A stretch of DNA of 45,318 bases from Candidatus Phascolarctobacterium caballi (GCA_018065225.1 JAGHTS010000213.1:1-45318), one strand, 5' to 3'. Positions 11,370 to 43,035 are shown, counted from the stretch's first letter. Numbers and translations are program-made. Notes: generated by a model from the sequence alone, not told the origin.

Positions 11370-14300
11370 TTGGCAGGGTCACAAAAGGAATTTGAACTGC
11401 TTTTTAAGCTGAAAGCGTCGCTGGGTGGTGATTTTAACAGCACATTCAAAAGCGCAATAAACACCAATAACCAGCTGCGGGACAGCTTAAAAAATGTAAA
11501 TTCCCTACAATCAAAAATCGACGGCTACACAAAGCAGTCTGCCGCTATTGACAAGAACAAAGAACGGCTGGCGCAGTTGAATGCTGAACATGACAGATTG
11601 CAGCAGGAGTTACAGCAGACAAGTGAACCAACAGAAGCGCTGCGGCGCAAGTTGGAAAAGAATGAAACCCAGATACAACAGACCACTGCCAAAATTAAAG
11701 AACAAGAACAACAGTTAGACACATACGGACAAGAACTGCGGGAAGCGGGAATAAATACAGATAATCTGGAAGAAGCAAACGGGCGCTTGCAGAGGTCATA
11801 CGATAAATTAAAGACTTCACAACAGACTTTGCAGCAGATAAATGAAAAACAGCAGCAAGTCAACGCCAGCATATCACAGACAAAAGGGCAATTATTGGGA
11901 ACTATCGGAACAATAAGCGCCGTTGCAGCTGCGGTATATGCTGGACCAGTGCAGTCAGCACAAGAGTATGAAACTGCAATGGCAAAGGTGGCAACCATTG
12001 CCGACACGTCGGCGGTTCCATTAGAAGCAATGTCACAACAGATTGTCGCATTGTCAAATCAAACTGGAATTTCAGCCAATGCGATTGCAGATGATGTTTA
12101 CAACGCTATTTCAGCGGGTCAGAACACAGCCGACGCAGTAAATTTTGTAACAAACAGTACAAAACTTGCGAAAGCGGGTTTTGCGGAGAGTTCACAAACA
12201 CTGGACGTACTAACAACCATACTGAACGCCTATGGAATGTCAGCGGATAAAGTAGGTGCGGTATCAGATATGCTGATACAGACCCAGAACAAAGGTAAAG
12301 TCACCGTTGGCGAATTATCAAGCGTTATGGGCAAGGTTATTCCAACAGCCAATTCAAACGGCGTAGCGCTGGAACAATTAACAGCCAGCTACGCAATAAT
12401 GACAAGCAAAGGTATTGCAGCGGCAGAAACAACAACATACTTAAACAGTATGATGAATGAACTTGGAAAGTCTGGAACAAAGACTGACAAGCTGCTGCGG
12501 TCTGCAACTGGAAGCAGTTTCAAAGAATTGATGGCAAGCGGAAAAAGTCTGGGTGATGTACTGCAAATCGTGCAGGACGAAGCAGCAAAAAGCGGACTAT
12601 CAATGGCTGATATGTTCGGAAGCGCAGAAGCCGGAAAAGCAGCAGTAACGTTGCTGTCAAATGGAGTAGACGGCTTTAATTCAAGTGTTCAAGACATGGT
12701 AAACAGCGTTGGTGCAACGAATACAGCGTTTGAAACAATGGACAAGACCACAGAAGCTAAAATGCAGAAAGCAAAGAACAGCATTTCTAATTTAAGCATT
12801 GTACTTGGACAAAACTTGCTGCCGATTGTAGGAAATCTGGCTGACAAGGTAGCAACGCTGGTAACGAAAGTGTCAGAATTTGCGCAGGAAAACCCAAAAG
12901 CCGTGCAAACGGTAATGAAGATGGTTGCAGGCTTTGCAGGGCTTAAAGTGGCAAGTTTGGGAACAAAACTTGGTTTTCTGGAAGCAAAAAAAGGCGTGCT
13001 GGGAATTATGGCAGCCTTTGAAAAATTCAAAGCACTTAAAGCAGCAGAAAGTCTGGGCGGCATAGCAACAAAAGCGGGAGGAATTGCAGTAAAACTGGGA
13101 CCAATCGTGGCAGTTGCAGCAGCAATAGGCGCAGCAATTTACTATGTGGCAAACAACCTTGAAGACGTCCGGGCAAATATACAACAGACATTCGGTGACG
13201 AGGGGTTGAAGATATTTGATGAAGTCTGGGCGTCAATAACAATGGTTGGCGACGCATTCAAGACAGCGTTTGCGGGTGTTTCAACAGATGTATTTTCAAC
13301 ACTTCAACAGATACTACCGACAATTATTTCAACACTAAAAACGGCAGCAACAAGCATATTACCAGTACTGGTACAGCTTGTGACGCAGCTTGCACCGTTG
13401 TTGGCACAATTTATATCAGCAATACTTCCAGTTCTGGGACAGTTGATAACGGCAATCATTCAAATTGCAGGAAATCTGATAACGGCGGTATTGCCTATCA
13501 TAATTGAATTGATAGCGCAGCTAATACCAGTCATAACGCAGATTATATCAGCAATACTTCCAGTGATTATTGAATTGCTCAATACTTTGGTGCCAATAGT
13601 AATGCAGATTATATCAGCAATATTGCCAGTGATTATCGAGTTGCTGAACACATTATTGCCAGTGATAATGCAGATAATTCAAGCGGTGCTGCCAATTATT
13701 ATTGAACTACTAAACCAGCTAATGCCTATTATTCAAATGATAGTGAGTGCAATTTTACCAATGCTGGTGCAGGTGATAAATGCTTTGTTGCCATTGTTCC
13801 AAACAATCATAAGCGCAATTTTGCCAGTGCTAACAACTCTAATAAATGCGCTGGTTCCAGTAATTCAAGTTTTGGCGTCTGTTTTGTCGTCGGTGCTTGG
13901 TGGAGCGCTTACAACGATAACAAATATCGTTCAAAGCGTAATGACGGTATTTCAAGGCTTGATTGACTTTATAACTGGTGTATTTACTGGTAATTGGTCG
14001 CAGGCTTGGAATGGAATAAAAGAAATTTTCTCCGGCGCAGTAAGCGGGCTTGGCGAGATTATAAAAGCGCCTTTGCGTGCGGTTGTTTCCGCAGTGAATG
14101 GTGTTATATCTGGACTTAATCAATTAAAGGTTCCAGACTGGGTGCCGGGCATTGGAGGAAAAGGCATAAACATTCCGTTGATACCGGGATTTGCAAAAGG
14201 TACATTATCAACACCAGATACGTTCATTGCTGGTGAGAATGGACCAGAGTTAATAACAAACGCACCGGGGCGCACGGTGTTTACAGCTGACCAGACCAGA

Positions 14301-14594
14301 AATATTATGGCAGCACAAAACATGGCTGCGACAGCGCCAACAGTAGCAGCAGGACAAGCAACAGCCGCACAAACCGTGAATACAACAGCGCCAGAGGTTA
14401 CACCGGGAGCAGGAAGCGGAAATGGCGGCACAAATAACTTTACCATCAATAACAATCCAACAATCGTAATTGAGGGCGACAAGCCGGAAGACTTGGACGC
14501 AAAGCTGGAAGAGAACAACCAGCGCTTGTTACGTGAAATGGAAGATTTGATGGACCAGAAAAAAGACAAGGAGGAGCGGCAGCGGTATGACTAA
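11370..14594 (+). CDS. Tape measure protein
   Basis: 1074 aa, TTG start after GGGAGGTG. Coiled-coil N-terminus, hydrophobic repeat core, position after the chaperone. Confidence 0.9.
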   Translation: MAGSQKEFELLFKLKASLGGDFNSTFKSAINTNNQLRDSLKNVNSLQSKIDGYTKQSAAIDKNKERLAQLNAEHDRLQQELQQTSEPTEALRRKLEKNETQIQQTTAKIKEQEQQLDTYGQELREAGINTDNLEEANGRLQRSYDKLKTSQQTLQQINEKQQQVNASISQTKGQLLGTIGTISAVAAAVYAGPVQSAQEYETAMAKVATIADTSAVPLEAMSQQIVALSNQTGISANAIADDVYNAISAGQNTADAVNFVTNSTKLAKAGFAESSQTLDVLTTILNAYGMSADKVGAVSDMLIQTQNKGKVTVGELSSVMGKVIPTANSNGVALEQLTASYAIMTSKGIAAAETTTYLNSMMNELGKSGTKTDKLLRSATGSSFKELMASGKSLGDVLQIVQDEAAKSGLSMADMFGSAEAGKAAVTLLSNGVDGFNSSVQDMVNSVGATNTAFETMDKTTEAKMQKAKNSISNLSIVLGQNLLPIVGNLADKVATLVTKVSEFAQENPKAVQTVMKMVAGFAGLKVASLGTKLGFLEAKKGVLGIMAAFEKFKALKAAESLGGIATKAGGIAVKLGPIVAVAAAIGAAIYYVANNLEDVRANIQQTFGDEGLKIFDEVWASITMVGDAFKTAFAGVSTDVFSTLQQILPTIISTLKTAATSILPVLVQLVTQLAPLLAQFISAILPVLGQLITAIIQIAGNLITAVLPIIIELIAQLIPVITQIISAILPVIIELLNTLVPIVMQIISAILPVIIELLNTLLPVIMQIIQAVLPIIIELLNQLMPIIQMIVSAILPMLVQVINALLPLFQTIISAILPVLTTLINALVPVIQVLASVLSSVLGGALTTITNIVQSVMTVFQGLIDFITGVFTGNWSQAWNGIKEIFSGAVSGLGEIIKAPLRAVVSAVNGVISGLNQLKVPDWVPGIGGKGINIPLIPGFAKGTLSTPDTFIAGENGPELITNAPGRTVFTADQTRNIMAAQNMAATAPTVAAGQATAAQTVNTTAPEVTPGAGSGNGGTNNFTINNNPTIVIEGDKPEDLDAKLEENNQRLLREMEDLMDQKKDKEERQRYD
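13411..13870 (+). repeat. 66-bp (22-aa, 11-aa sub-period) tandem repeats inside the tape measure gene
   Basis: 'atatcagcaatacttccagt' recurs at 13414 and 13545, and a variant ('atatcagcaatattgccagt') at 13611. Protein units 'ISAILPVIIELLNTLVPIVMQI' repeat about 7 times with drift. Confidence 0.75.
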
Positions 14595-20681: not shown

Positions 20682-21722
20682 ATGTCTAATTTTGATGATT
20701 TAGCAATGGCGGTAGCGTCCTTTGGAGGAAACAACGCCGTAAAGTTTGATGATTTGGGTATGCCATCAATTATGGTGGGTATTCCTAAAATGAAGTATTC
20801 TGACCTTATCACCGGGGGCACACAAGAAACATTGCCTTGGTGGATTGTTGATGGAGTAGAAAAGGAAGTTATCTGGGTATCAAAATACATTAACTGCGTT
20901 GTAAACGACAGAGCGTATTCGTTGCCTATGAAAGACCCTAAATGCTATATCAATTTTGACCAAGCATTAGCAGCTTGTAGAAAGAAAGGCGCTGGCTGGC
21001 ACTTAAACCAGAACGGCGTATTTGCAGCAATCAACCTTTGGTGCCAGCGTAACGGCTTTATCCCAAGAGGTAACACAAACTGGGACAGAAGCTATGTAAA
21101 GGCATACGAAAAGGGTATCAACACATACATTGACGGTTCGCACGGCGGCGGTAGAACTGCAACTGGTTCTGGTCCTATGACATGGAACCACGACGGAACA
21201 CCAGCGGGAATTGCTGACCTTTGCGGCAACTGCTGGGAGTGGGTAGCTGGTATGCGTATCAAAAATGGTGAAATTCAGATTATCCCATACGGTAACAGCA
21301 TGAAGTCAGATTGCGACATGAGCGACGCAAGCACAGAATGGAAAGCAATCAAGCCGGACGGTTCACTTGTGGCACCGGGAACAGCAGGAACACTGCATTA
21401 TGATTATGTTTCCGGCAAAATCGTTATCAACACAAGCACAAGCGCAACCGCAAGTTGGAATACACCTTTTGGAAATGTGGCAGCAGCAAGTGGCGTAACA
21501 ATTCCACAGATTGCAGTTGCAGCTGGTTTGATTAAGGATAGCGCAGACAACTACGGCACAAGCGGTCACCAGCAGTATGTCAATACTGACGGTGAGCGTC
21601 TGCCTCTCCGGGGTTCGAGCTTCAGCGGCACTTCCAGCGGTGGTGGCGCTGCGTTGCTCTTGCACCACGGGCGTACTCTCAGCAACAGCTACGTTTCGTT
21701 CCGCTCCGCTTTATATGAGTAA
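20682..21722 (+). CDS. DGR target protein, FGE-sulfatase/C-type-lectin-fold receptor-binding candidate
   Basis: 'AGIADLCGNCWEWVAGM' is a GN[VC]WEW-type FGE/CLec motif. The C-terminal 37 codons are the variable repeat. It sits at the distal end of the tail-fibre block. Confidence 0.85.
   Translation: MSNFDDLAMAVASFGGNNAVKFDDLGMPSIMVGIPKMKYSDLITGGTQETLPWWIVDGVEKEVIWVSKYINCVVNDRAYSLPMKDPKCYINFDQALAACRKKGAGWHLNQNGVFAAINLWCQRNGFIPRGNTNWDRSYVKAYEKGINTYIDGSHGGGRTATGSGPMTWNHDGTPAGIADLCGNCWEWVAGMRIKNGEIQIIPYGNSMKSDCDMSDASTEWKAIKPDGSLVAPGTAGTLHYDYVSGKIVINTSTSATASWNTPFGNVAAASGVTIPQIAVAAGLIKDSADNYGTSGHQQYVNTDGERLPLRGSSFSGTSSGGGAALLLHHGRTLSNSYVSFRSALYE
21601..21711 (+). repeat. DGR variable repeat (VR)
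   Basis: Gap-free 111-bp alignment to 22317-22427 (offset 716) with 14 mismatches, each opposite an A in the TR. VR ends 11 nt before the stop codon. Confidence 0.9.
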
Positions 21723-21748
21723 CTGGGAACTGGGCACAGATAAACTGC

Positions 21749-21770
21749 GGGGATTGCGGCAGCAATCCCC
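21749..21770 (+). promoter_or_regulatory. Perfect 9-bp stem / 4-nt loop hairpin downstream of VR (DGR target-recognition-type element)
   Basis: 'ggggattgc' - 'ggca' - 'gcaatcccc', 38 nt after the VR end. No T-run follows, so it is not a terminator. Confidence 0.6.
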
Positions 21771-21802
21771 ATATAAAAATATTGTGAAAAGGTGGTTGAA
21801 AT

Positions 21803-22252
21803 ATGCCAGAAGATACAGCAGAACAGTTGCCCAAGCTGGATAATGTGTGCGACAATGCAACACCAGAAGACTTCAAAATGAAAAACAAAGTCTATGAGTT
21901 GCTAAAGTATGCAGGACCACAGCTGGAAGAGTTTCCACGGGCAAAACGTGAACTTGCCAGAAAAATTGATGAAACAATGCTGGAAGTGTTGCGCTTGGTG
22001 GTAACGCTGGAAAATAAGCACTATAAGAAAACCACGCTTGGTGACTTGGACAATGAACTTGACGTGCTGCGGCACCTTGTCAGATTGGCGGCAGACGCAG
22101 ACTACACAAGAAGCAAGAAACCATGTTTGCCAATCAAGAAATATGAAATGATGGCAAGATACATCAATGAAATAGGGAACATGATTGGTGGATATTATAA
22201 GTCACTGAATGGCAGCCCGCAGAGTAGCGGAAACAATGCCAAAAAGAAATGA
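21803..22252 (+). CDS. avd: Accessory variability determinant (Avd-like helical bundle)
   Basis: 149 aa, basic and helical. Motif 'YELLKY..FPRAKRELARKIDETMLEVLRLVV..LDVLRHLVRLA'. Lies between target and TR. ATG follows AAGGTGG. Confidence 0.7.
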   Translation: MPEDTAEQLPKLDNVCDNATPEDFKMKNKVYELLKYAGPQLEEFPRAKRELARKIDETMLEVLRLVVTLENKHYKKTTLGDLDNELDVLRHLVRLAADADYTRSKKPCLPIKKYEMMARYINEIGNMIGGYYKSLNGSPQSSGNNAKKK

Positions 22253-22254
22253 TA

Positions 22255-22279
22255 AAAAGCAGGGTAAAACCTGCTTTTT
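22255..22279 (+). terminator. Intrinsic terminator between avd and TR
   Basis: 'aaaagcagg' - 'gtaaaa' - 'cctgctttt' followed by a T-run. Confidence 0.6.
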
Positions 22280-22316
22280 GTATTTGGGGAATAAGCCGTT
22301 AATAGAGGACTTGCCG

Positions 22317-22427
22317 TGCCTATCCGGGGTTCGAGCTTCAACAACACTTCCAACGGTGGTGGCGCTGCGTTGAACTTGAACAACGAGCGTACTAACAGCA
22401 ACAACAACGTTTCGTTCCGCTCCGCTT
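22317..22427 (+). repeat. DGR template repeat (TR)
   Basis: Non-coding copy of VR with 26 adenines. Read in the VR frame it holds 10 AAC codons plus ATC and GAG. Confidence 0.9.
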
Positions 22428-22692
22428 CACCCCATTTTGCCAGTAGTCGTGCCCATACGTGGACACGTCCAGTGCGCTTGGGTTAAAGGGGCTTATTTCC
22501 ATTCCAAAGGGGGACCAGAACAGCTGGGAACCGTAGGAAAAAGATTGAATTGCCGTAACGATAGTTAGTAAGTAGCAAAGCTGCTGAAAGTCAGTACCGG
22601 GAAACTGAATGTATATATCACGTTTGGACTGCGTAGACCCGCAGTTTGATTTGTACGGCGCTTATTTTGGTTAGTTAAGGAGGGAAAAGCAA
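22317..22692 (+). ncRNA. Putative DGR template RNA (TR plus 265-nt spacer up to the RT start)
   Basis: No plausible ORF. Several local stems, e.g. 'actgcg'..'cgcagt'. Position matches the TR-spacer RNA of characterised DGRs. Confidence 0.4.
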
Positions 22693-23790
22693 ATGCAGAC
22701 AATAAAAAATATTTTCCCCATGATATATGACTTTGAAAATCTGTTCAATGCTTATAAAGCCGGGATAAAGTGCAAAAGATACCGGGAAGACGTAATGCGT
22801 TATACGGATAAGCTGGAAGAAAACTTGATTGAGTTGCAAAACGAACTTATCTGGAAAACCTACACAGTAGGGAGATACAACATATTTTATGTGTACGAAC
22901 CTAAAAAGCGCATGATTATGTCATTGCAGTTCAAAGATAGAGTGGCACAGCACGCCATATATAGGCAGCTGAACCCGTATTTTGAAAAGCAGTTTATACA
23001 TGACAGCTACGCTTGCAGAGTGGGAAAAGGGACGCACAAAGCAGTCAACCGCTTGCATAATTGGTTGAAGCAGACTGACAGAAAACCGCAACGCTATTAT
23101 TACTTAAAGCTGGACGTATCAAAGTATTTTTACAGAATAGACCATGAAATTTTGATGAATATTTTGCGGAAAAAGATTGCTGATGAAGATTTGTTGCACG
23201 TCTTGTCAGTGATTATAAACTGCGAAGAAACAAAATTTGGTCTTCCAATGGGTGCAGACATTGGGGACGTGGCGTTTGATGAATTGCTGGGAGAAGTTGG
23301 GCTGCCTATTGGCAATTTGACTTCACAAATGTTCGCAAATCTATACTTGAACGAACTTGACCAGTTCTGCAAACACAAATTGCACCTGCATTATTACATA
23401 CGCTATATGGACGACATAATAATACTGCATAAAGACAAAAAGTACCTTGAAAAAGTAAAAAGGAAAATTGCAGAGTTTCTGGAAAGTGAACTGCATTTGC
23501 AGCTAAACAAAAAGACTTGCATTAGACCAACCAGCATGGGCATTGAGTTTGTGGGCTTCCGTATCTGGTCAACACATATAAAGTTGCGTAAGAAGACAGC
23601 AAAGAAGCTGAAAAGACGCTTGCAATATATGTTTGCAGCGTATGCAGCGGGAGAAATTGACAAAGATACACTGGATAGGTCAGTTGCTTCATATCGTGGA
23701 ATTTTGAAGCATTTTAACAGTTACGGTCTGCGCCAAAGCCTTAACGAAATTTATGTAAAGGAGGTGACGCAGAATGGAACAGAGTTTTGA
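22693..23790 (+). CDS. DGR reverse transcriptase
   Basis: ATG after TAAGGAGGG. 'YIRYMDDIIIL' (YMDD) and 'LPIGNLTSQMFANLYLNELD' (DGR-type GxxxSQ motif). 365 aa with no maturase or endonuclease domains. Confidence 0.9.
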   Translation: MQTIKNIFPMIYDFENLFNAYKAGIKCKRYREDVMRYTDKLEENLIELQNELIWKTYTVGRYNIFYVYEPKKRMIMSLQFKDRVAQHAIYRQLNPYFEKQFIHDSYACRVGKGTHKAVNRLHNWLKQTDRKPQRYYYLKLDVSKYFYRIDHEILMNILRKKIADEDLLHVLSVIINCEETKFGLPMGADIGDVAFDELLGEVGLPIGNLTSQMFANLYLNELDQFCKHKLHLHYYIRYMDDIIILHKDKKYLEKVKRKIAEFLESELHLQLNKKTCIRPTSMGIEFVGFRIWSTHIKLRKKTAKKLKRRLQYMFAAYAAGEIDKDTLDRSVASYRGILKHFNSYGLRQSLNEIYVKEVTQNGTEF

Positions 23791-25952: not shown

Positions 25953-26531
25953 ATGAACAACATTATCATTTGCGCAGTGCAGCTGGTAGTTGCAGTTGCA
26001 GCGTTTTTATTCGGTAAATATGTTTTTCCAGAGGTAAAAGAGTACATACCAGAGGTTGTGGAAAATTTGACCATTATTGAAAGATGGGCAGCAAAGTTTG
26101 TTGTCTGGGCAAAAGAGTTCCAGAAAGACAAGCCGGGAAAAGAGAAAATGAATGCAGTTGTTGAAAAACTAAAAGAGATTGCAGACGCAGCCGGGCTGGA
26201 TATTACAGAAGACCAGATAAGGGCTATTGCGCAGACGGCGTATGAAGCAATGATGGCGGGTGAGCAGCAGGGAAACAATATTGAAGAAGCAGTGGCGCTT
26301 GAAGCGGTGCAGCAGTTCCCGCAGCTAACAATCAATATCAACGCAAACACCGGGGAAACGGACGTGGAGAAAATAGCCATTGCAACGAATAACGTGCCAG
26401 AGGGTGCAACAGAACAGAACCCAGATGGAACATACAACGTATATGACGCAGCCGGGAATATGACTGGGACTATATCAGCGGAAGAATACGAAGCAGCAAC
26501 AAAGGACGTTGACAAAGTAGTTATTGAGTAA
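25953..26531 (+). CDS. Holin-like protein (LL-H-type, single N-terminal TM)
   Basis: N-terminal TM 'IIICAVQLVVAVAAFLFG' followed by an acidic helical tail. Position follows the endolysin. Confidence 0.5.
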   Translation: MNNIIICAVQLVVAVAAFLFGKYVFPEVKEYIPEVVENLTIIERWAAKFVVWAKEFQKDKPGKEKMNAVVEKLKEIADAAGLDITEDQIRAIAQTAYEAMMAGEQQGNNIEEAVALEAVQQFPQLTININANTGETDVEKIAIATNNVPEGATEQNPDGTYNVYDAAGNMTGTISAEEYEAATKDVDKVVIE

Positions 26532-26580
26532 CTGCAAGAAATAGCACTGACAGCGCACAGAATAAGCCATATTAAAGAAT

Positions 26581-26620
26581 AAAGCCCGTAGGTGATTAAC
26601 TTATCACCTGCGGGCTTTTT
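26581..26620. terminator. Bidirectional intrinsic terminator
   Basis: 13-bp stem (gcccgtaggtgat / atcacctgcgggc) with T5 on the + strand and a T-run on the - strand. Separates the convergent lysis and accessory genes. Confidence 0.75.
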
Positions 26621-26645
26621 GTCGTTTATGGGCTTATTTGAGGGC

Positions 26646-26924
26646 TTATGCTTCTTGCTGCAATTCGTTCCATACATGGTGCCCAAGTTCTGCCATTGCT
26701 TCTGGCGTTTCTTTCACAAACATTGCAAAAAGGAAAGTCAAGAACTGACTTTTTGTGTCCTGCCATTCTTCCGGGGTCATGTTCGGATTGGCAGCCAGCT
26801 TCATTTCAAGAAGTTTTTGTGTTATTTCCTGCCCAAAAGGTGTATTCAATGCGGTGCGTTCTGCCTGCGTAACCTTTTCTACAAAATCATTGAAGTTGTC
26901 TGCTATCATAATATTTGCCGCCAT
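26646..26924 (-). CDS. Hypothetical small acidic protein (accessory island gene B)
   Basis: ATG 26924 after GGAGGAAATAACA; 92 aa. The ORF-track start at 27002 is an upstream extension. Confidence 0.5.
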   Translation of the reverse strand: MAANIMIADNFNDFVEKVTQAERTALNTPFGQEITQKLLEMKLAANPNMTPEEWQDTKSQFLTFLFAMFVKETPEAMAELGHHVWNELQQEA

Positions 26925-26980
26925 TGTTATTTCCTCCATTCGATAAATGATAAGGGCGGCAGCAGTGCCGCCCGGTTGAA

Positions 26981-27232
26981 TTAGCCACGGAATACCGGGC
27001 AAGTATTACCACGAAACATGGTTAAGCGAATAGCGTGATTTAATTCAGCGTCACTCATATAGTCAGTGTCAAGCGACTTGCAAAAGCCGATTGCCCAGTT
27101 GATACCCTGCAAGGTCTGGCGGTCAAGAATACCACGTTTTGCAGGTTCGCTTGTAGCAGCTGCGTATCTTGCAAGAGTGTTCTCACAAGAGAAAATGAAG
27201 TTTGCTGGAATGTTGATTGATAATGCGTTCAT
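26981..27232 (-). CDS. Hypothetical small protein (accessory island gene A)
   Basis: ATG 27232 after GGGAGGTAACAACC; 83 aa. The ORF-track start at 27532 would run through the promoter region. Confidence 0.5.
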   Translation of the reverse strand: MNALSINIPANFIFSCENTLARYAAATSEPAKRGILDRQTLQGINWAIGFCKSLDTDYMSDAELNHAIRLTMFRGNTCPVFRG

Positions 27233-27286
27233 GGTTGTTACCTCCCGGATATATGAATTATTGTTGTTGCTCTTGTAACTGTCTTT

Positions 27287-27315
27287 ATTATATACTTGCG
27301 CAAGTATAAAGTCAA
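27287..27315 (-). promoter_or_regulatory. Sigma-70-type promoter TTGACT-17-TATAAT with a palindromic operator in the spacer
   Basis: On the minus strand: -35 TTGACT (27310-27315), 17-nt spacer 'ttatacttgcgcaagta', -10 TATAAT (27287-27292). Nearly identical to 40451-40479. Confidence 0.6.
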
Positions 27316-27399
27316 GAAGAATACAGCAGAAATATTGCACAAATATACTTGCGTAAGATAACAAAATAATTGTGCAATATATATACTTGCGCAAGGGAT
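27291..27399. promoter_or_regulatory. Operator array: three TATACTTGCGCAAGTATA-type palindromes plus an inverted pair of AATATTGCACAA
   Basis: Perfect 18-bp palindrome at 27291-27308 and degenerate copies at 27344-27360 and 27382-27399. 'atattgcacaa' (27332-27342) is inverted at 27370-27380. Confidence 0.6.
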
Positions 27400-27415
27400 A
27401 ACGCCGTGATACAAT
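27387..27415 (+). promoter_or_regulatory. Candidate promoter of the RHH gene (TTGCGC-17-TACAAT)
   Basis: The -35 lies inside the third palindrome; the -10 TACAAT is at 27410-27415. Confidence 0.35.
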
Positions 27416-27449
27416 GATAAACACAAATATACAGCGGAGGTGTGAAAGC

Positions 27450-27680
27450 ATGGAAGAACAGAAAAAGCCGGACACAAAGAACACTGGGAAAGCGACAGCA
27501 GCAACAAAAGCAAAAAACAACTTCAACAGCAAAGCGTATGACCGTTTATACCCATTTGTAAAAGCAGGGGAAAAAGTAAAAATTGAGAGAGCAGCGGGGA
27601 AAGCCGGACAAAGCCTAAATGATTATATTGTAACTGCGATATACCAGAGAATGAAGAGGGAGGGGCACGACGTTGAATGA
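27450..27680 (+). CDS. Ribbon-helix-helix (Arc/CopG-like) DNA-binding protein
   Basis: ATG 27450 after GGAGGTG. Lys-rich tail, then 'YDRLYPFVKAGEKVKIERAAGKAGQSLNDYIVTAIYQRMKRE', a beta-alpha-alpha RHH pattern. Confidence 0.5.
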   Translation: MEEQKKPDTKNTGKATAATKAKNNFNSKAYDRLYPFVKAGEKVKIERAAGKAGQSLNDYIVTAIYQRMKREGHDVE

Positions 27681-28161
27681 AACAATAAGTCAAGCAAAAC
27701 AACAAATTCATAATTTTGCAGAAAACATTATAAAAATACGAAAAGCAGTGATTGAAGCCGTGTGGGAATTTGTGATTGATGGAGAAACGCCAAAGCCAGA
27801 AGACGGACAACTTGTGCAGATGGACACGAAAATGTACATATACGGGAAATGCACAAAATATATTTTTTGCTACAAAGGAGAACGAAAAGCAGAACTGTAC
27901 GAAACAGATAATTTTGATTACTATTTGCACGCAGACAAATTCAGTTATACTGGAAAAGCGAAAATTGATATATACAAAAGACCAGACGGAATGTTTCACC
28001 CGGCATTCATACAAAAAGATGGAATACAGAAAGATTATATTATAATAATTGATGAAATATTGCCAGAAGAGATAAAAATAATAAAGGAATATGAGTGGGA
28101 ACAAAAAATAAAAGCGGCAGTGGGAGAAAAAAAGCACTATGAAGCCAGCGACATAATGTAG
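27673..28161 (+). CDS. Hypothetical protein (AT-rich accessory gene)
   Basis: TTG start after GAGGGAGGGG, overlapping the RHH gene by 8 nt. 162 aa. Visibly more AT-rich than its surroundings. Confidence 0.5.
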   Translation: MNETISQAKQQIHNFAENIIKIRKAVIEAVWEFVIDGETPKPEDGQLVQMDTKMYIYGKCTKYIFCYKGERKAELYETDNFDYYLHADKFSYTGKAKIDIYKRPDGMFHPAFIQKDGIQKDYIIIIDEILPEEIKIIKEYEWEQKIKAAVGEKKHYEASDIM

Positions 28162-28174
28162 ACAATTTGAGAGT

Positions 28175-28211
28175 AAAAAAGAAGCCCAGTGGCAGCAGTG
28201 CTTCTGGGCTT
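28175..28211 (-). terminator. Intrinsic terminator downstream of the integrase gene
   Basis: 8-bp stem (aagcccag / ctgggctt) followed by T6 on the minus strand. Confidence 0.55.
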
Positions 28212-28219
28212 TGATTGAT

Positions 28220-28267
28220 GTTGTACTAATTAAACACAGCCCACGGGTAGTGTTAAGTTAGTACAAC
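28220..28267. other. Candidate attP core: 18-bp imperfect inverted repeat around a 12-bp centre
   Basis: 'gttgtactaattaaacac' - 'agcccacgggta' - 'gtgttaagttagtacaac'. It abuts the integrase stop codon and has no T-run on either side. Confidence 0.45.
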
Positions 28268-28268
28268 A

Positions 28269-29639
28269 CTACCCAAAAACAACACCCGTGATATTCTGGT
28301 CATTATCAATGCGTATTTCTTTAATGACAGAGCGCCAAAGCGTGCGTTTTTCCTCACGGGTCAAAGTATCATAAATGCTTTTGAAATCACTATCAAGAAG
28401 TTTACGAACAGCGGAAAAGTCCGGGGGCGGTTCAATGTTGTTGTCTGGTATTTGGTTCAAAGCAGACATATATATTTCATAGTCCCTTTTGTATTCCTCA
28501 ATGTCTATAAGGTCGTTTACATACAATTCTTTAAGTTTACCAAGTTTTCTTTTCAAAGTGGCTTTGTCAGTTCCGGCAGCAGTTCTTTTCTTCTTTGCAG
28601 CTTCAACCTCCCATTCCAACTGGCAGCGCTCCAATTCTTCTGCGAGGTGTTCAAACAACCACGCTTCAACGTGACTTTCACGGGCTGAATGATTGTGACA
28701 GCAACGCCCACGCTGGAAATGCTGGTTGCAACGGTAATAATAAATGCCACGGCTGATGTAGCCGCACAATTTATGGTTGCATTCAGAGCAAGTCAAAATG
28801 GAAGTGAATATATAAACATTGCCAGCTGGCGCAGAACGTGCATTGCGCTTCAATAACAGCTGTACACGGTCAAATTGTTCTTGCGATATGATAGGCTGAC
28901 AAAAATTAGAATTATATCTGCCGCCACGGTCATATACACCAGTGTACAACTTTTCTTGCAACATACGGCGAAAAGTAGCGTCGCACCAATTAAGACCGTA
29001 AGTTTCACGAATATATTTGACGGTCCCACGCTGGGACACGGTAGCTTCAAAATGATTGAATGCGTCACAAACAATGGCTGCGTCTTCTGGTACAACTTCA
29101 AGTCGTTTTTCAGAGTTGACACGATAGCCGCAAGGGGCTGAACCAGAAACGACAGTGCCATGCGCAACTTTGCTGTCAAATACAACGTCTATACGTTCAC
29201 CGCAAATATCGGCTTCATTCTGGGCAATAGACAATTTGACATTGATATACAAGCGCCCATTTGCAGTGCTTGTGTCATATTCTTCATCAATAGTCTTCCA
29301 GCCGCAGTTGTGGGCTTCCAGAACCTCCATAACTTTGTAATAATCAGCAACAGAACGAAACCAGCGGTCAAGACGGCAAAACAAAAGCACGTCTATTTCA
29401 TCACGCTTTACAGCGCCAAGCATTTTTTGAAATTCGGTTCGCTTGTGCATATTCTTTCTGGCGGTCTTTGCTGCGTCAATATAAACACCGACTATCACCC
29501 AGCCCCGTTCCCGTGCGTAGGCTTCCAGTCGTTCTTGCTGGGCTTCCAGTGACAGACCTTTTATTTTCTGTTCCTCACCAGAAACACGTATATACAATGC
29601 GACCCGGACAAGCGCCGGGGCAATATCTTTCTTTTTCAC
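28269..29639 (-). CDS. int: Large serine recombinase (integrase)
   Basis: GTG start. 'VALYIRVSGEEQ' holds the catalytic Ser. Resolvase domain plus recombinase domain plus zinc ribbon 'CSECNHKLCG..YYRCNQH', then a coiled-coil C-terminus. Confidence 0.9.
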   Translation of the reverse strand: MKKKDIAPALVRVALYIRVSGEEQKIKGLSLEAQQERLEAYARERGWVIVGVYIDAAKTARKNMHKRTEFQKMLGAVKRDEIDVLLFCRLDRWFRSVADYYKVMEVLEAHNCGWKTIDEEYDTSTANGRLYINVKLSIAQNEADICGERIDVVFDSKVAHGTVVSGSAPCGYRVNSEKRLEVVPEDAAIVCDAFNHFEATVSQRGTVKYIRETYGLNWCDATFRRMLQEKLYTGVYDRGGRYNSNFCQPIISQEQFDRVQLLLKRNARSAPAGNVYIFTSILTCSECNHKLCGYISRGIYYYRCNQHFQRGRCCHNHSARESHVEAWLFEHLAEELERCQLEWEVEAAKKKRTAAGTDKATLKRKLGKLKELYVNDLIDIEEYKRDYEIYMSALNQIPDNNIEPPPDFSAVRKLLDSDFKSIYDTLTREEKRTLWRSVIKEIRIDNDQNITGVVFG

Positions 29640-40376: not shown

Positions 40377-40475
40377 ACAACTTGCGCAAGTATAAATATT
40401 GCACAAAGAATGTCTATACTTGCGCAACTATATTTGTGTATTATTACATATTGAAATTATACTTGCGCAAGTATA
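40377..40475. promoter_or_regulatory. Second operator array: three TATACTTGCGCAAGTATA-type palindromes plus AATATTGCACAAA
   Basis: 40377-40394 (half degenerate), 40415-40432 (one mismatch) and 40458-40475 (perfect). 'aatattgcacaaa' at 40395-40407 is identical to 27331-27343. Confidence 0.6.
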
Positions 40476-40479
40476 TAAT
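40451..40479 (+). promoter_or_regulatory. Sigma-70-type promoter TTGAAA-17-TATAAT with a palindromic operator in the spacer
   Basis: The spacer 'ttatacttgcgcaagta' is identical to the minus-strand promoter at 27287-27315. The identity continues through 'aaagacagtta'. Confidence 0.6.
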
Positions 40480-40520
40480 AAAGACAGTTAGAACAGCAAA
40501 GCAATATGGAGGTACACGAA

Positions 40521-40766
40521 ATGGAAAAAACATATTTTGAAGAAATCAAGTTAAGGTTTATCAAAGCTGCAATGTGGACGAATGACAATGCAAAAGACGG
40601 CGACGTGAACAGAAACCATGTAAATTATGGTTGCTGCACCTGCTGGGCACAAGTGCTGCAAGATATGGGACACGAAACAAAAGTGCCAGTATGGGAAGAT
40701 AACGGCTGCTTGAAAATTCCATTTATCGAAATAGATGGACAAAAAGTGCTTGAATTTGAAAAATAG
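40521..40766 (+). CDS. Hypothetical protein
   Basis: ATG 40521 after GGAGG; 81 aa. Its stop codon overlaps the first base of the tRNA. Confidence 0.45.
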   Translation: MEKTYFEEIKLRFIKAAMWTNDNAKDGDVNRNHVNYGCCTCWAQVLQDMGHETKVPVWEDNGCLKIPFIEIDGQKVLEFEK

Positions 40767-40838
40767 CACGGTTGGCGCAATGGATAGCGCAGCAGCTTCC
40801 GAAGCTGACGGCTGCGGGTTCAAGTCCCGCACCGTGCA
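40766..40838 (+). tRNA. tRNA-Arg (anticodon CCG)
   Basis: Hand-folded cloverleaf. Acceptor GCACGGT/ACCGTGC, D stem GCGC/GCGC, anticodon stem with 4 of 5 pairs and loop TTCCGAA, 5-nt variable loop. T stem GCGGG/CCCGC with TTCAAGT loop, discriminator A. No encoded CCA. Confidence 0.85.
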
Positions 40839-40887: not shown

Positions 40888-41649
40888 ATGAAAGTATTAT
40901 CAATTATCAACTTAAAAGGCGGGGTGGCAAAAACAATATCCAGCGTCAATATGGCACACATACTGGCAACCGTACACGGCTGCAAAGTGCTTCTGATTGA
41001 CAATGACAAGCAGGGGAACGCTTCAAAGATACTGAACCGCCACAGCTACGACAACAAGGGAACAGCTGATGTAATGACAGAACGTGGGCTGAATATGGCT
41101 GAAATTATACAGCATACAGATTATGACGGCTTGGACATTATAACAGCAAATATGAAATTGCTGACAGCAAATCTTGAAGTTATGCTGGACCAGAAAAGAC
41201 CGCAGCAGACAAGATTTAGAAAAGCATTGGAGCAGGTACAGAAAGAATACGACTACTGTATTATTGACAATGCACCAGACATTAACATTTCAACAATCAA
41301 TGCGCTGGTAGCTTCAACAGACGTTATGGTGCCAATTACGATTGATGATTTTGCGATTGATGGGCTGGCAGAATTAAAAGAGCAGATAGACAACACCCGT
41401 GAAGATTTGAACCCAGATTTGAAGTTTTGCGGTTGTTTTATCACACAGTACGACAGAACAAATGAAGCTGACACGCAGGGCGCAGAGTATTTGCAGGCGC
41501 AGCAATACCCGGTATTCAAAACGCTTATTAGAAGAACACCAAAAATGAAACCAAGCACATTTGCAAGGGAACCAATTATTGATTATTCACCACGCTGCGG
41601 CGCTTCTGCTGACTATAAAGCGTTAGTGGAAGAATGGCTGAAAATGTGA
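40888..41649 (+). CDS. parA: ParA/Soj-type partition ATPase
   Basis: ATG 40888 after AAGGAGGA. Deviant Walker A 'NLKGGVAKTISS' and 'LIDNDKQGN'. The ORF-track start at 40735 runs through the tRNA. Confidence 0.85.
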   Translation: MKVLSIINLKGGVAKTISSVNMAHILATVHGCKVLLIDNDKQGNASKILNRHSYDNKGTADVMTERGLNMAEIIQHTDYDGLDIITANMKLLTANLEVMLDQKRPQQTRFRKALEQVQKEYDYCIIDNAPDINISTINALVASTDVMVPITIDDFAIDGLAELKEQIDNTREDLNPDLKFCGCFITQYDRTNEADTQGAEYLQAQQYPVFKTLIRRTPKMKPSTFAREPIIDYSPRCGASADYKALVEEWLKM

Positions 41650-41679
41650 CCAATTCGGACACGTTAGGAGGGAAGAAAG

Positions 41680-43035
41680 ATGGCGAAAGAAAACAAAAAA
41701 TTCAATTTAACTGAATTACTCAACCAGCGTTCCAAAGAGGTTGCAACAGAGGAAGTGCAGGAGCAGGAAGAAGCGGTGGTGACAGATGGAGAGCAGACAA
41801 CAGCTGACATATACGACCTTATACCATCAAAAGAAAATTTTTACAATACAGAGGACGTGCAAGACTTAAAAGAAAGCATTGAACTTGTAGGAGTGCTGCA
41901 ACCGCTTCTGGTATCAGAACCGGGGGAAGATGGGAAAAGACATATATTTGCTGGACACAGAAGACGCCGTGCAATAATGCAACTGGTAGAAGAGGGAAAA
42001 GAGCGTTTCAGATACGTTCCAATTATGGTGAAGCCTAAAAAAGACAAGATACTTGATAAGCTGGCATTGATAATGGCGAACCGCTTCCGAGAAAAAACAG
42101 ACTGGGAAAAAATGCAAGAAGCAATAGAAACAGAACGTCTGGTGCTGGAATTGAAAGAGCAAATGGACATTCCGGGAAGAACACGTGATTTGCTGGCAGA
42201 GATAATCAACACGTCTTCTGCGCAGCTTGGAAGATACAAGGCAATATATAACAATCTAATTCCAGAACTTATGGAAGAGTTCAAAGCAAATAATATTGGC
42301 GTATCAATCATTTATGAAGCGTCCGGGCTTGAAGAAGAATACCAGAAAAGGGCAGCGGAGATATTCAGAGAAAATGAAACATTAACACTGCCAGATATAA
42401 AGCAACTGAAAAAGCAATGGGAAGCAGCACAGCCAATACCGGGACAAATGAACTTTGAACAGATGGAGCAGGGCGGCGAAACAGACGCAGCAGAAGAGAA
42501 CGAGGAAAGAAGAGAGAATGAAGCGCAGGGGCAGCAGGAAGAATATGTGGACCCGCAGCCGGAAAGTATCACGTCGCTTTGTTACAGCTGCACGCATTAT
42601 GAAGAGTGCCACGACAAAAAGGCGACAGTGACAAGCTGCAATGCTTATGAGAACCGCAGAGAAGCCCAGAAAACAGACGAAGAGAGATACAGCGAAGAGC
42701 AGGAAGCCATTGACAGAGAAACGAAAAAGAAACTGCGAGAAATGCAGCAGGAAGAGAGAATGCAGCATTTGCCATCTGATGAAGCGCCGAAGCAACGTGA
42801 CATAAGACTTGCGGGCAAGAAATACGAAGAGGTGACGAGCGGGCAGCTGACATTCTTATTACTGAAAAAAGACGGCTTCAAACTGGGTGAAGAAATAGAG
42901 TTGCCGGAGTACAAAGAGGGACAGCCAACGGGAAGAAAAGCTGACATTGAAATTATATACATTCTGGAAGACTGGACGGGTCTTGATGATGATTATTGCA
43001 TTATTGGTTTTAATGTCACAGCATTTGACGCATAG
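41680..43035 (+). CDS. parB: ParB-like protein fused to a C-terminal DUF3850/ASCH-like domain
   Basis: ParB N-domain 'GVLQPLLV..FAGHRRRRA'. Central HTH region, acidic linker, Cys cluster. C-terminus 'LAGKKYEEVTSGQLTFLLLKKD..FKLGEEIELPEY..GRKADIEIIYIL' is DUF3850-like. Confidence 0.7.
   Translation: MAKENKKFNLTELLNQRSKEVATEEVQEQEEAVVTDGEQTTADIYDLIPSKENFYNTEDVQDLKESIELVGVLQPLLVSEPGEDGKRHIFAGHRRRRAIMQLVEEGKERFRYVPIMVKPKKDKILDKLALIMANRFREKTDWEKMQEAIETERLVLELKEQMDIPGRTRDLLAEIINTSSAQLGRYKAIYNNLIPELMEEFKANNIGVSIIYEASGLEEEYQKRAAEIFRENETLTLPDIKQLKKQWEAAQPIPGQMNFEQMEQGGETDAAEENEERRENEAQGQQEEYVDPQPESITSLCYSCTHYEECHDKKATVTSCNAYENRREAQKTDEERYSEEQEAIDRETKKKLREMQQEERMQHLPSDEAPKQRDIRLAGKKYEEVTSGQLTFLLLKKDGFKLGEEIELPEYKEGQPTGRKADIEIIYILEDWTGLDDDYCIIGFNVTAFDA

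Follow-up and report, generated by a model that had tools for sequence, protein, structure and literature searches.

In this study, we provide evidence that the 18-bp palindromes repeated at two loci of the 45,318-nt stretch of DNA analysed here (the window) are the operators of a 76-aa Arc-like RHH repressor encoded at 27450-27680 on the plus strand, a reading to which comparative sequence analysis lends a probability of about 0.8. The putative repressor appears to repress the gene that encodes it, a small gene next to that one and the distant par operon. Locus A is flanked by gpL83 and by the RHH gene, downstream of which comes orf162; locus B precedes orf81-tRNA-Arg(CCG)-parA-parB. A preliminary description of this DNA had named the RHH protein as the obvious candidate binder. 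It is now the predicted one on three grounds: it is the only constant neighbour of the sites, the centre of the sites covaries with its beta-strand, and the sites are present in a phage that lacks ParA and ParB.

Judged by its sequence, the window resembles the entire genome of a temperate tailed phage (~45 kb), with the gene order terminase, tail and lysis genes, serine recombinase, cI-like HTH repressor, replication genes, ParA and ParB. A near-identity search with positions 26000-29000 against phage records gave no match. The nearest named relative is Clostridium phage Saumur (ParB ~51-54% identical), an inducible integrated prophage of Enterocloster clostridioformis YL32 (PMC10197239). The window carries a large serine recombinase (28269-29639) together with ParA/ParB (40888-43035), and the integrated prophage Saumur also keeps ParAB. 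The repeats in the cI-cro intergenic region, TTGGT-N-ACCAA, differ from the palindromes described here; the RHH circuit is therefore separate from the cI switch, as first proposed. Two other repeat structures were observed elsewhere in the window. A diversity-generating retroelement spans 20682-23790: its VR (21601-21711) is the 3' end of an ORF at 20682-21722, its TR lies at 22317-22427, all differences between these 111-nt repeats (14/14) fall at TR adenines, and a reverse-transcriptase ORF occupies 22693-23790; in Saumur, the corresponding position has annotations for RT and Avd. A tape-measure-like ORF (11370-14594, 1074 aa) contains three tandem 66-nt repeats (13527-13724; 80% and 67% identical).

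Sequence comparison within the window revealed a regulatory module of ~125 nt at 27267-27395 and an inverted second copy at 40381-40499. The duplication that had been noticed earlier, an identity of 38 of 40 nt between 40451-40490 on the plus strand and 27276-27315 read on the minus strand, was confirmed, and the duplicated stretch is longer than the 40 nt then given. Homologous arms extend over 49 nt (27267-27315 and 40451-40499, 92%) and over 65 nt (27331-27395 and 40381-40445, 80%), and therefore the entire O3-O2-O1-promoter module is an inverted duplicate. The distance between O2 and O1 differs by 10 nt between the two copies. The operator TATACTTGCGCAAGTATA is a perfect 18-bp palindrome that occurs exactly at 27291-27308 (O1, in the spacer of the leftward promoter P_L) and at 40458-40475 (O1', in the spacer of P_par). 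Allowing up to 3 mismatches, four matches were found in the window against 0.02 expected, and none of 100 shuffles yielded as many. The claim of two further palindrome copies at each locus also held: the 12-bp core ACTTGCGCAAGT at up to 2 mismatches has six matches, three per locus (27294, 27347, 27385, 40380, 40418 and 40461). At locus A, the middle operator O2 (TATACTTGCGTAAGATAA, 27344-27361) has a degenerate right arm, and O3 (TATACTTGCGCAAGGGAT, 27382-27399) has lost its right arm, while its centre TTGCGC forms the -35 of the RHH promoter. At locus B, O2' (TATACTTGCGCAACTATA, 40415-40432) contains 1 mismatch and O3' (ACAACTTGCGCAAGTATA, 40377-40394) a degenerate left arm. In most relatives, O3 is likewise without one arm.

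The operators are accompanied by a second motif, AATATTGCACAAA, which is exact on the plus strand at 27331-27343, where it abuts the left side of O2, and at 40395-40407. Its presence at both loci and its inverted copy at 27369-27381 (minus strand, 2 mismatches) had been described correctly; the statement that it is inverted at locus A was incomplete, as a degenerate inverted copy is also found at 40433-40445 (minus strand, 2 mismatches). Across the window, the 8-mer TGCACAAA occurs 5 times against 6.6 expected and thus shows no enrichment; its significance is solely its fixed position beside the middle operator. The companion motif belongs to an inverted repeat, (T)GCACAAA ... TTTGTGC(A), that flanks O2 and is kept in phages with GCGC-type and with CCGT-type operators (named after their centres, see below) as well as in the ParB-less Dulem virus 34. 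Its dyad lies ~2 bp off the operator dyad. The repeat could be a second binding site. The motif was also considered as a cI operator, which was rejected because the cI region has different repeats, and as a promoter element, for which no convincing hexamers were found.

The putative promoter P_L (27287-27315, minus strand) consists of a -35 hexamer TTGACT (27315-27310), a 17-nt spacer and a -10 hexamer TATAAT (27292-27287), with a predicted start near 27280. P_par (40451-40479, plus strand) has TTGAAA, a 17-nt spacer and TATAAT, with a predicted start near 40486. Both match the consensus at 11 of 12 positions, in line with their earlier designation as near-consensus promoters with 17-nt spacing. 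The palindrome does lie in the spacer, but it does not fill it exactly: it covers spacer positions 2-17 plus the first two bases of the -10 hexamer. A third promoter, P_R, is predicted for the RHH gene (27387-27415, plus strand; -35 TTGCGC at 27387-27392, 17-nt spacer, extended -10 TGaTACAAT at 27407-27415, predicted start near 27422). It was absent from the preliminary description and was read directly from the sequence; the promoter scan did not report it because its -35 matches at just 3 of 6 positions. The element TGnTAnAAT is kept at an equal distance from O3 in relatives, and the layout in which O3 serves as the -35 occurs in 19 related loci.

The view of these elements as sigma-70-type promoters with an operator in the spacer was strengthened by related phages, in which the cassette recurs, and by Saumur, in which RNA contigs start just downstream of it. 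The cassette has the form TTGnnn-17 nt-TATAAT with TATAC-N8-GTATA fused to the -10, keeps its 17-nt spacing except in one group, and precedes more than 100 different first ORFs in related phages. These first ORFs (loci L001-L297) are small, 35-200 aa, and nearly all are without assigned function. Recurrent cargo families begin MKKFE(V/I)GK..., MTIANTILEQLGGNKF..., MTVKLQGIYN... and MTKK.LKE.YT.WN..... The initial transcribed stretch behind P_L, AAAGACAGTTA... (27267-27286, minus strand), is conserved and common to the P_par copy and to the cassettes of Saumur and of three further loci (L007, L013, L027). Downstream of the Saumur cassette at 2824-2852, RNA contigs from four metatranscriptome runs of two studies begin at 2875/2876, 16-17 nt past the predicted start, and one of them carries adapter sequence at this end. 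These contig ends fit a transcript 5' end and give weak support to the promoter assignment, as the contigs are assembled, unstranded and joined to late-gene contigs, and come from another phage than that of the window. At the Saumur par promoter, the RNA contigs showed read-through without a clean start. A search of RNA runs for the window found none, and the DNA runs that contain it are gut metagenomes only.

The first gene behind P_L is gpL83 (26981-27232, minus strand; 83 aa, no assigned function), with the Shine-Dalgarno sequence GGAGGT at 27245-27240 and a terminator-like hairpin directly past its end (26954-26973, minus strand). The RHH gene is followed in its operon by orf162 (27673-28161, plus strand), which has no assigned function and is not kept beside RHH genes elsewhere. 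Behind P_par, all on the plus strand, lie orf81 (40521-40766, no assigned function), tRNA-Arg(CCG) (40766-40838, inside the par operon between orf81 and parA), ParA (40888-41649, 253 aa), a small Walker ATPase without an N-terminal HTH, and ParB (41680-43035, 451 aa). With this arrangement, the tRNA would come from the RHH-controlled transcript. ParB is of unusual build, in that its ParB_N domain, HTH region and conserved Cys-rich stretch (CYSC...CH...C) are combined with a DUF3850/ASCH-like domain at the C-terminus; in its N-terminal peptide, F8, L10, L13, L14, N15 and R17 are invariant across relatives. A toxin-antitoxin pair formed by the RHH protein and orf162 was considered and rejected, since there is no conserved downstream partner: orf162 has a weak (32%) relative at one related RHH locus (present in the set under two labels, L005 and L035), and the genes downstream of RHH differ in Saumur and Dulem virus 34.

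The neighbours of the palindrome point to the RHH protein. The exact palindrome was found in 31 IMG/VR stretches, in all of which it lies beside an RHH homologue (motif KAKNKYN..YDR) or upstream of parA. Conversely, in a set of 162 RHH genes chosen by protein similarity alone, with 76 viral loci and 80 from bacterial genomes (the latter scanned with a closer RHH alignment), 113 carry the exact-arm pattern TATAC-N8-GTATA within 450 nt upstream, for which the chance is ~4e-4 per gene. The hosts of these loci range from Lachnospiraceae, Oscillospiraceae and Acutalibacteraceae to Paenibacillus. Two contigs with Lachnospiraceae-type RHH genes (79% and 33% identity; L303 and L360) belong to a MAG labelled Bacteroides fragilis, a label that is probably a binning error rather than the true host. 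The gene on the far side of the sites varies, and the RHH gene is the sole constant neighbour.

Across these loci, the operator arms TATAC/GTATA are invariant, whereas the centre varies with the beta-strand of the resident RHH protein. The strand RLYPFV goes with the centre TTGCGCAA or TTACGCAA, RLYPY(V/A) with TCACGTGA, TAACGTGA or TAGCGTGA, QFLVTV with TTATATAA, and R-x-E-L-A with TTCCGTAA (CCGT type). Nearly all CCGT-type loci with an RHH gene have the strand R-x-E-L-(A/T/I/S), and one has RMEITV. When the Saumur RHH protein was used as query, the close-relative scan gave 2 loci, and the CCGT-type RHH genes were recovered by a DNA pattern scan. The same centre occurs in 31% of pairs that share strand residues 1, 3 and 5 and in 3% of other pairs (0 of 1000 shuffles), in a locus set of which part (L001-L031 and L196 onwards) was selected by operator sequence and with a shuffle test that overstates significance because related sequences are not independent. 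The GCGC centre is paired with three strands (RLYPFV, RINLTM and RVNLTL), and RLYPY(V/A) is paired with several centres; therefore the code is not one-to-one, and other residues must contribute. In Saumur and in two IMG/VR contigs (L106/L118 and L117/L173), the RHH locus and the region upstream of parA have one and the same variant operator. Homologues of gpL83 sit behind CCGT-type cassettes in other phages, and homologues of orf81 behind both GCGC-type and CCGT-type cassettes. As these CCGT cassettes come with the other RHH type, the operator tracks the resident repressor and not the cargo. On one contig (L009), a CCGT-type cassette (43-70) is located 1.6 kb from a GCGC-type RHH locus (1642-1728); this suggests a recombination mosaic whose heterotypic operator should escape the resident repressor.

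The predicted protein has a basic N-terminal arm, T-x-A-K-N-x-F/Y-N, the strand RLYPFV and two helices with a GQSLN turn. On its own, it gave no significant Pfam, NCBIfam or named PHROG match; sub-threshold Pfam matches were TacA1 (0.009) and HicB (0.029), and the Pfam Arc model (PF03869) was not matched at E up to 0.1. Arc was matched by 8 of 50 relatives at E up to 0.01 (best 7.9e-6). Pfam matches among the 50 members also include 14 to TacA1, 10 to HicB and 6 to NikA-like models, and RHH_1/5/7 as well. The profile of the 50-member family matched single-chain Arc (E 3.6e-4), AmrZ (4.3e-4) and Arc (8e-4) in the PDB. An AF2 model of moderate confidence (overall pLDDT 67) shows an extended segment at 31-38 and helices at 41-51 and 56-71 (pLDDT 84-87 in these parts), with GQSLN at 53-57. 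The best Foldseek matches of this model were Arc (probability 0.91), ParG, CopG, AmrZ and AtaR, with E-values that are not significant alone. In the model, a strand precedes two helices and a G-x-S/T/N turn lies ahead of helix 2, as required of RHH proteins. Strand positions 1, 3 and 5 align with AmrZ K18, V20 and R22. When variability was tabulated for 30 positions of the N-terminus and the strand, strand positions 3 and 5 (2.75 and 3.04 bits) came out among the highest, while the N-arm T-x-A-K-N-K-Y-N is nearly invariant across the family. Thus, the alternating outward strand residues vary with the operator, which is a mark of the RHH superfamily, and a variable strand with a fixed N-arm mirrors a variable centre with fixed operator arms. 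Profile and fold searches together place the protein in the Arc/AmrZ branch of the RHH superfamily. The family comprises 2,067 clusters at 50% identity (E up to 0.001) and has no model in NCBIfam or Pfam. By sequence, it is a large, undescribed and uncurated family that belongs to none of the Arc/Mnt, omega, ArtA and Reg576 families.

The location of three palindromic sites directly upstream of parA-parB, the usual place of type Ib centromeres, raises the question whether they are parS sites of the phage ParB, dispersed clusters of which would also silence nearby promoters as with N15 SopB or RK2 KorB. ParB has a ParB_N domain and an HTH, and the search found no other perfect palindrome able to serve as its parS. 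However, Dulem virus 34, a complete circular 45-kb phage, has an RHH gene beside a divergent O1-O2-O3 region that holds its only three sites, and no ParA or ParB was detected in it by tblastn. In diverse Bacillota, over 100 RHH genes have the sites as neighbours. Furthermore, site specificity does not follow ParB. In a tree of 74 ParB proteins, GCGC operators occur in two separate clades nested among CCGT; relative to the window ParB, the nearest proteins (74-75% identity) go with GCGC, those at 65-69% with CCGT and those at 50% with GCGC again. No alignment column separates the 7 GCGC-type from the 53 CCGT-type proteins, and the HTH (GRTR..AQLGRYKxIYNNL) is nearly identical in Saumur (CCGT) and in a GCGC-type relative (L014). 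The parS reading, and with it the earlier suggestion of ParB as a secondary binder, was therefore rejected, and we regard it as highly improbable. It is also unlikely, if less so, that the RHH protein combines repression with a role as a centromere-binding ParA adaptor of the omega/ParG type, so that the operator arrays would be centromeres as well. Omega behaves in this way (PMC2441792, PMC9499535), the RHH protein has a long basic and probably flexible N-terminal tail, and a site array is located upstream of the small HTH-less ParA (40377-40475), as in ~100 related par loci. Of the features of type Ib centromere-binding proteins, this array is thus present, but neither adjacency to parA nor a strict restriction to genomes with ParA was found: the RHH gene lies 13 kb from parA and not downstream of it, the family occurs in ParA-less phages, and a search of 72,556 plasmid records gave no homologue. 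In addition, ParB is encoded in the operon itself, and its N-terminus bears a conserved peptide of a type that usually makes contact with ParA; the N-arm of the RHH protein is conserved irrespective of par genes.

The sites might also be bound by some other host or phage protein, or the second locus might be a recent promoter duplicate without a dedicated regulator, which we consider very improbable. A conserved host factor could, in principle, account for arms that do not vary even between distant hosts, and the right operator arm overlaps the -10 hexamer. On the other hand, O2 and O3 keep their arms outside any promoter spacer, the centre differs within one host group and tracks the resident RHH protein, and the divergent cargo gene varies while only the RHH gene is constant. 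Six copies per genome are kept across phages whose ParBs are 45-55% identical, which rules out a neutral duplicate.

For the RHH protein as repressor, we infer the binding, stoichiometry, repression, operator hierarchy and timing of the circuit as follows. One dimer per dyad would insert a beta-ribbon of two strands into the major groove over the centre of the palindrome, where R32, Y34 and F36 of RLYPFV might read TTGCGCAA; the TATAC arms, which are invariant, would be recognised by the basic and conserved N-terminal arms (T-x-A-K-N-K-Y/F-N). As the perfect operator fills the gap between -35 and -10 at P_L and P_par, the bound repressor would exclude RNA polymerase there. O3, presumably weaker since one arm is missing, overlies the -35 of the RHH gene's own promoter, so that autorepression would set in only once more repressor is present. 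Cooperativity may come from O2 and O3. Potentially, gpL83, the RHH-orf162 operon and orf81-tRNA-Arg-parA-parB form one regulon of three units, all three promoters of which would be active when the DNA reaches a cell without repressor, and would then be kept down at a low, matched level. This circuit would run independently of the cI switch. It is tempting to speculate further that the RHH family of Bacillota-prophage repressors reads its 18-bp operator in two parts, the conserved N-arm on the invariant TATAC arms and the hypervariable strand residues on the hypervariable centre, which would give many mutually orthogonal specificities, and that a portable operator-promoter cassette plugs more than 100 cargo genes and parAB into an entry-triggered switch, as in zygotic induction. 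We hold this wider proposal as tentative, at somewhat less than even odds.

The RHH family is a candidate regulator for opaque prophage genes of gut Clostridia, namely small 'moron' genes and the par operon of an integrating phage. In the proposed circuit, the par operon would be wired to an unlinked phage repressor instead of regulating itself. The natural series of repressors and operators, in which the frame stays fixed and the centre varies, is a data set for the choice of DNA by RHH proteins, and could supply orthogonal repressor-promoter pairs for genetic tools in Bacillota.

In P22, the Arc/Mnt system (immI) places the operator inside the promoter and has divergent promoters, which is its likeness to the window locus. 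Like the proposed RHH repressor, Arc/Mnt are small, phage-encoded, self-regulating RHH repressors apart from the main cI/c2 immunity switch. However, the window protein has a conserved basic N-terminal extension of ~30 aa and falls below the Pfam Arc model, and whereas Arc binds as a dimer of dimers on 21 bp, the window has an 18-bp perfect palindrome in three copies, each probably bound by one dimer plus its arms. The window furthermore contains no ant homologue, and its regulon would reach the par operon 13 kb away. KorB-OB of RK2 and the SopB centromeres in N15 promoters are dispersed palindromes at promoters, including that of the par operon. There, the binder is a ParB-family protein, which for the window is not supported by comparison. 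Among plasmid-encoded RHH proteins, omega (ω2) of the inc18 plasmid pSM19035 controls, via arrays of repeated sites, a number of unlinked promoters, among them the one of its own gene and the one of the ParA gene (PMC2441792, PMC9499535). In contrast to the 18-bp palindromes and the classical ParB of the window, omega uses arrays of 7-bp heptads, is itself the centromere-binding protein and has no ParB_N protein beside it. The window RHH family is also present where ParA is lacking, and the search of plasmid records gave no member of it. ArtA, from the Staphylococcus plasmid pSK41, has at its N-terminus an extended basic motif and globally regulates several promoters, those of partition genes among them; a single dimer is bound at its normal operator (PMC2777438). 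Its operator is of 10 bp (ACATGACATG), and this plasmid protein has no detected sequence similarity to the phage protein described here. Reg576 of the Bacillus plasmid p576 is a repressor of four promoters, including its own, that lets establishment genes be expressed in a short burst once the DNA has entered, before the repressor has built up (PMC6294495), and this is the timing proposed here for the window RHH protein. Reg576 acts on a dual TTATCCC heptamer bound by two dimers, belongs to a conjugative element and has no detected similarity to the window protein. In summary, the kind of circuit is familiar, and the RHH family that would run it is the undescribed part.
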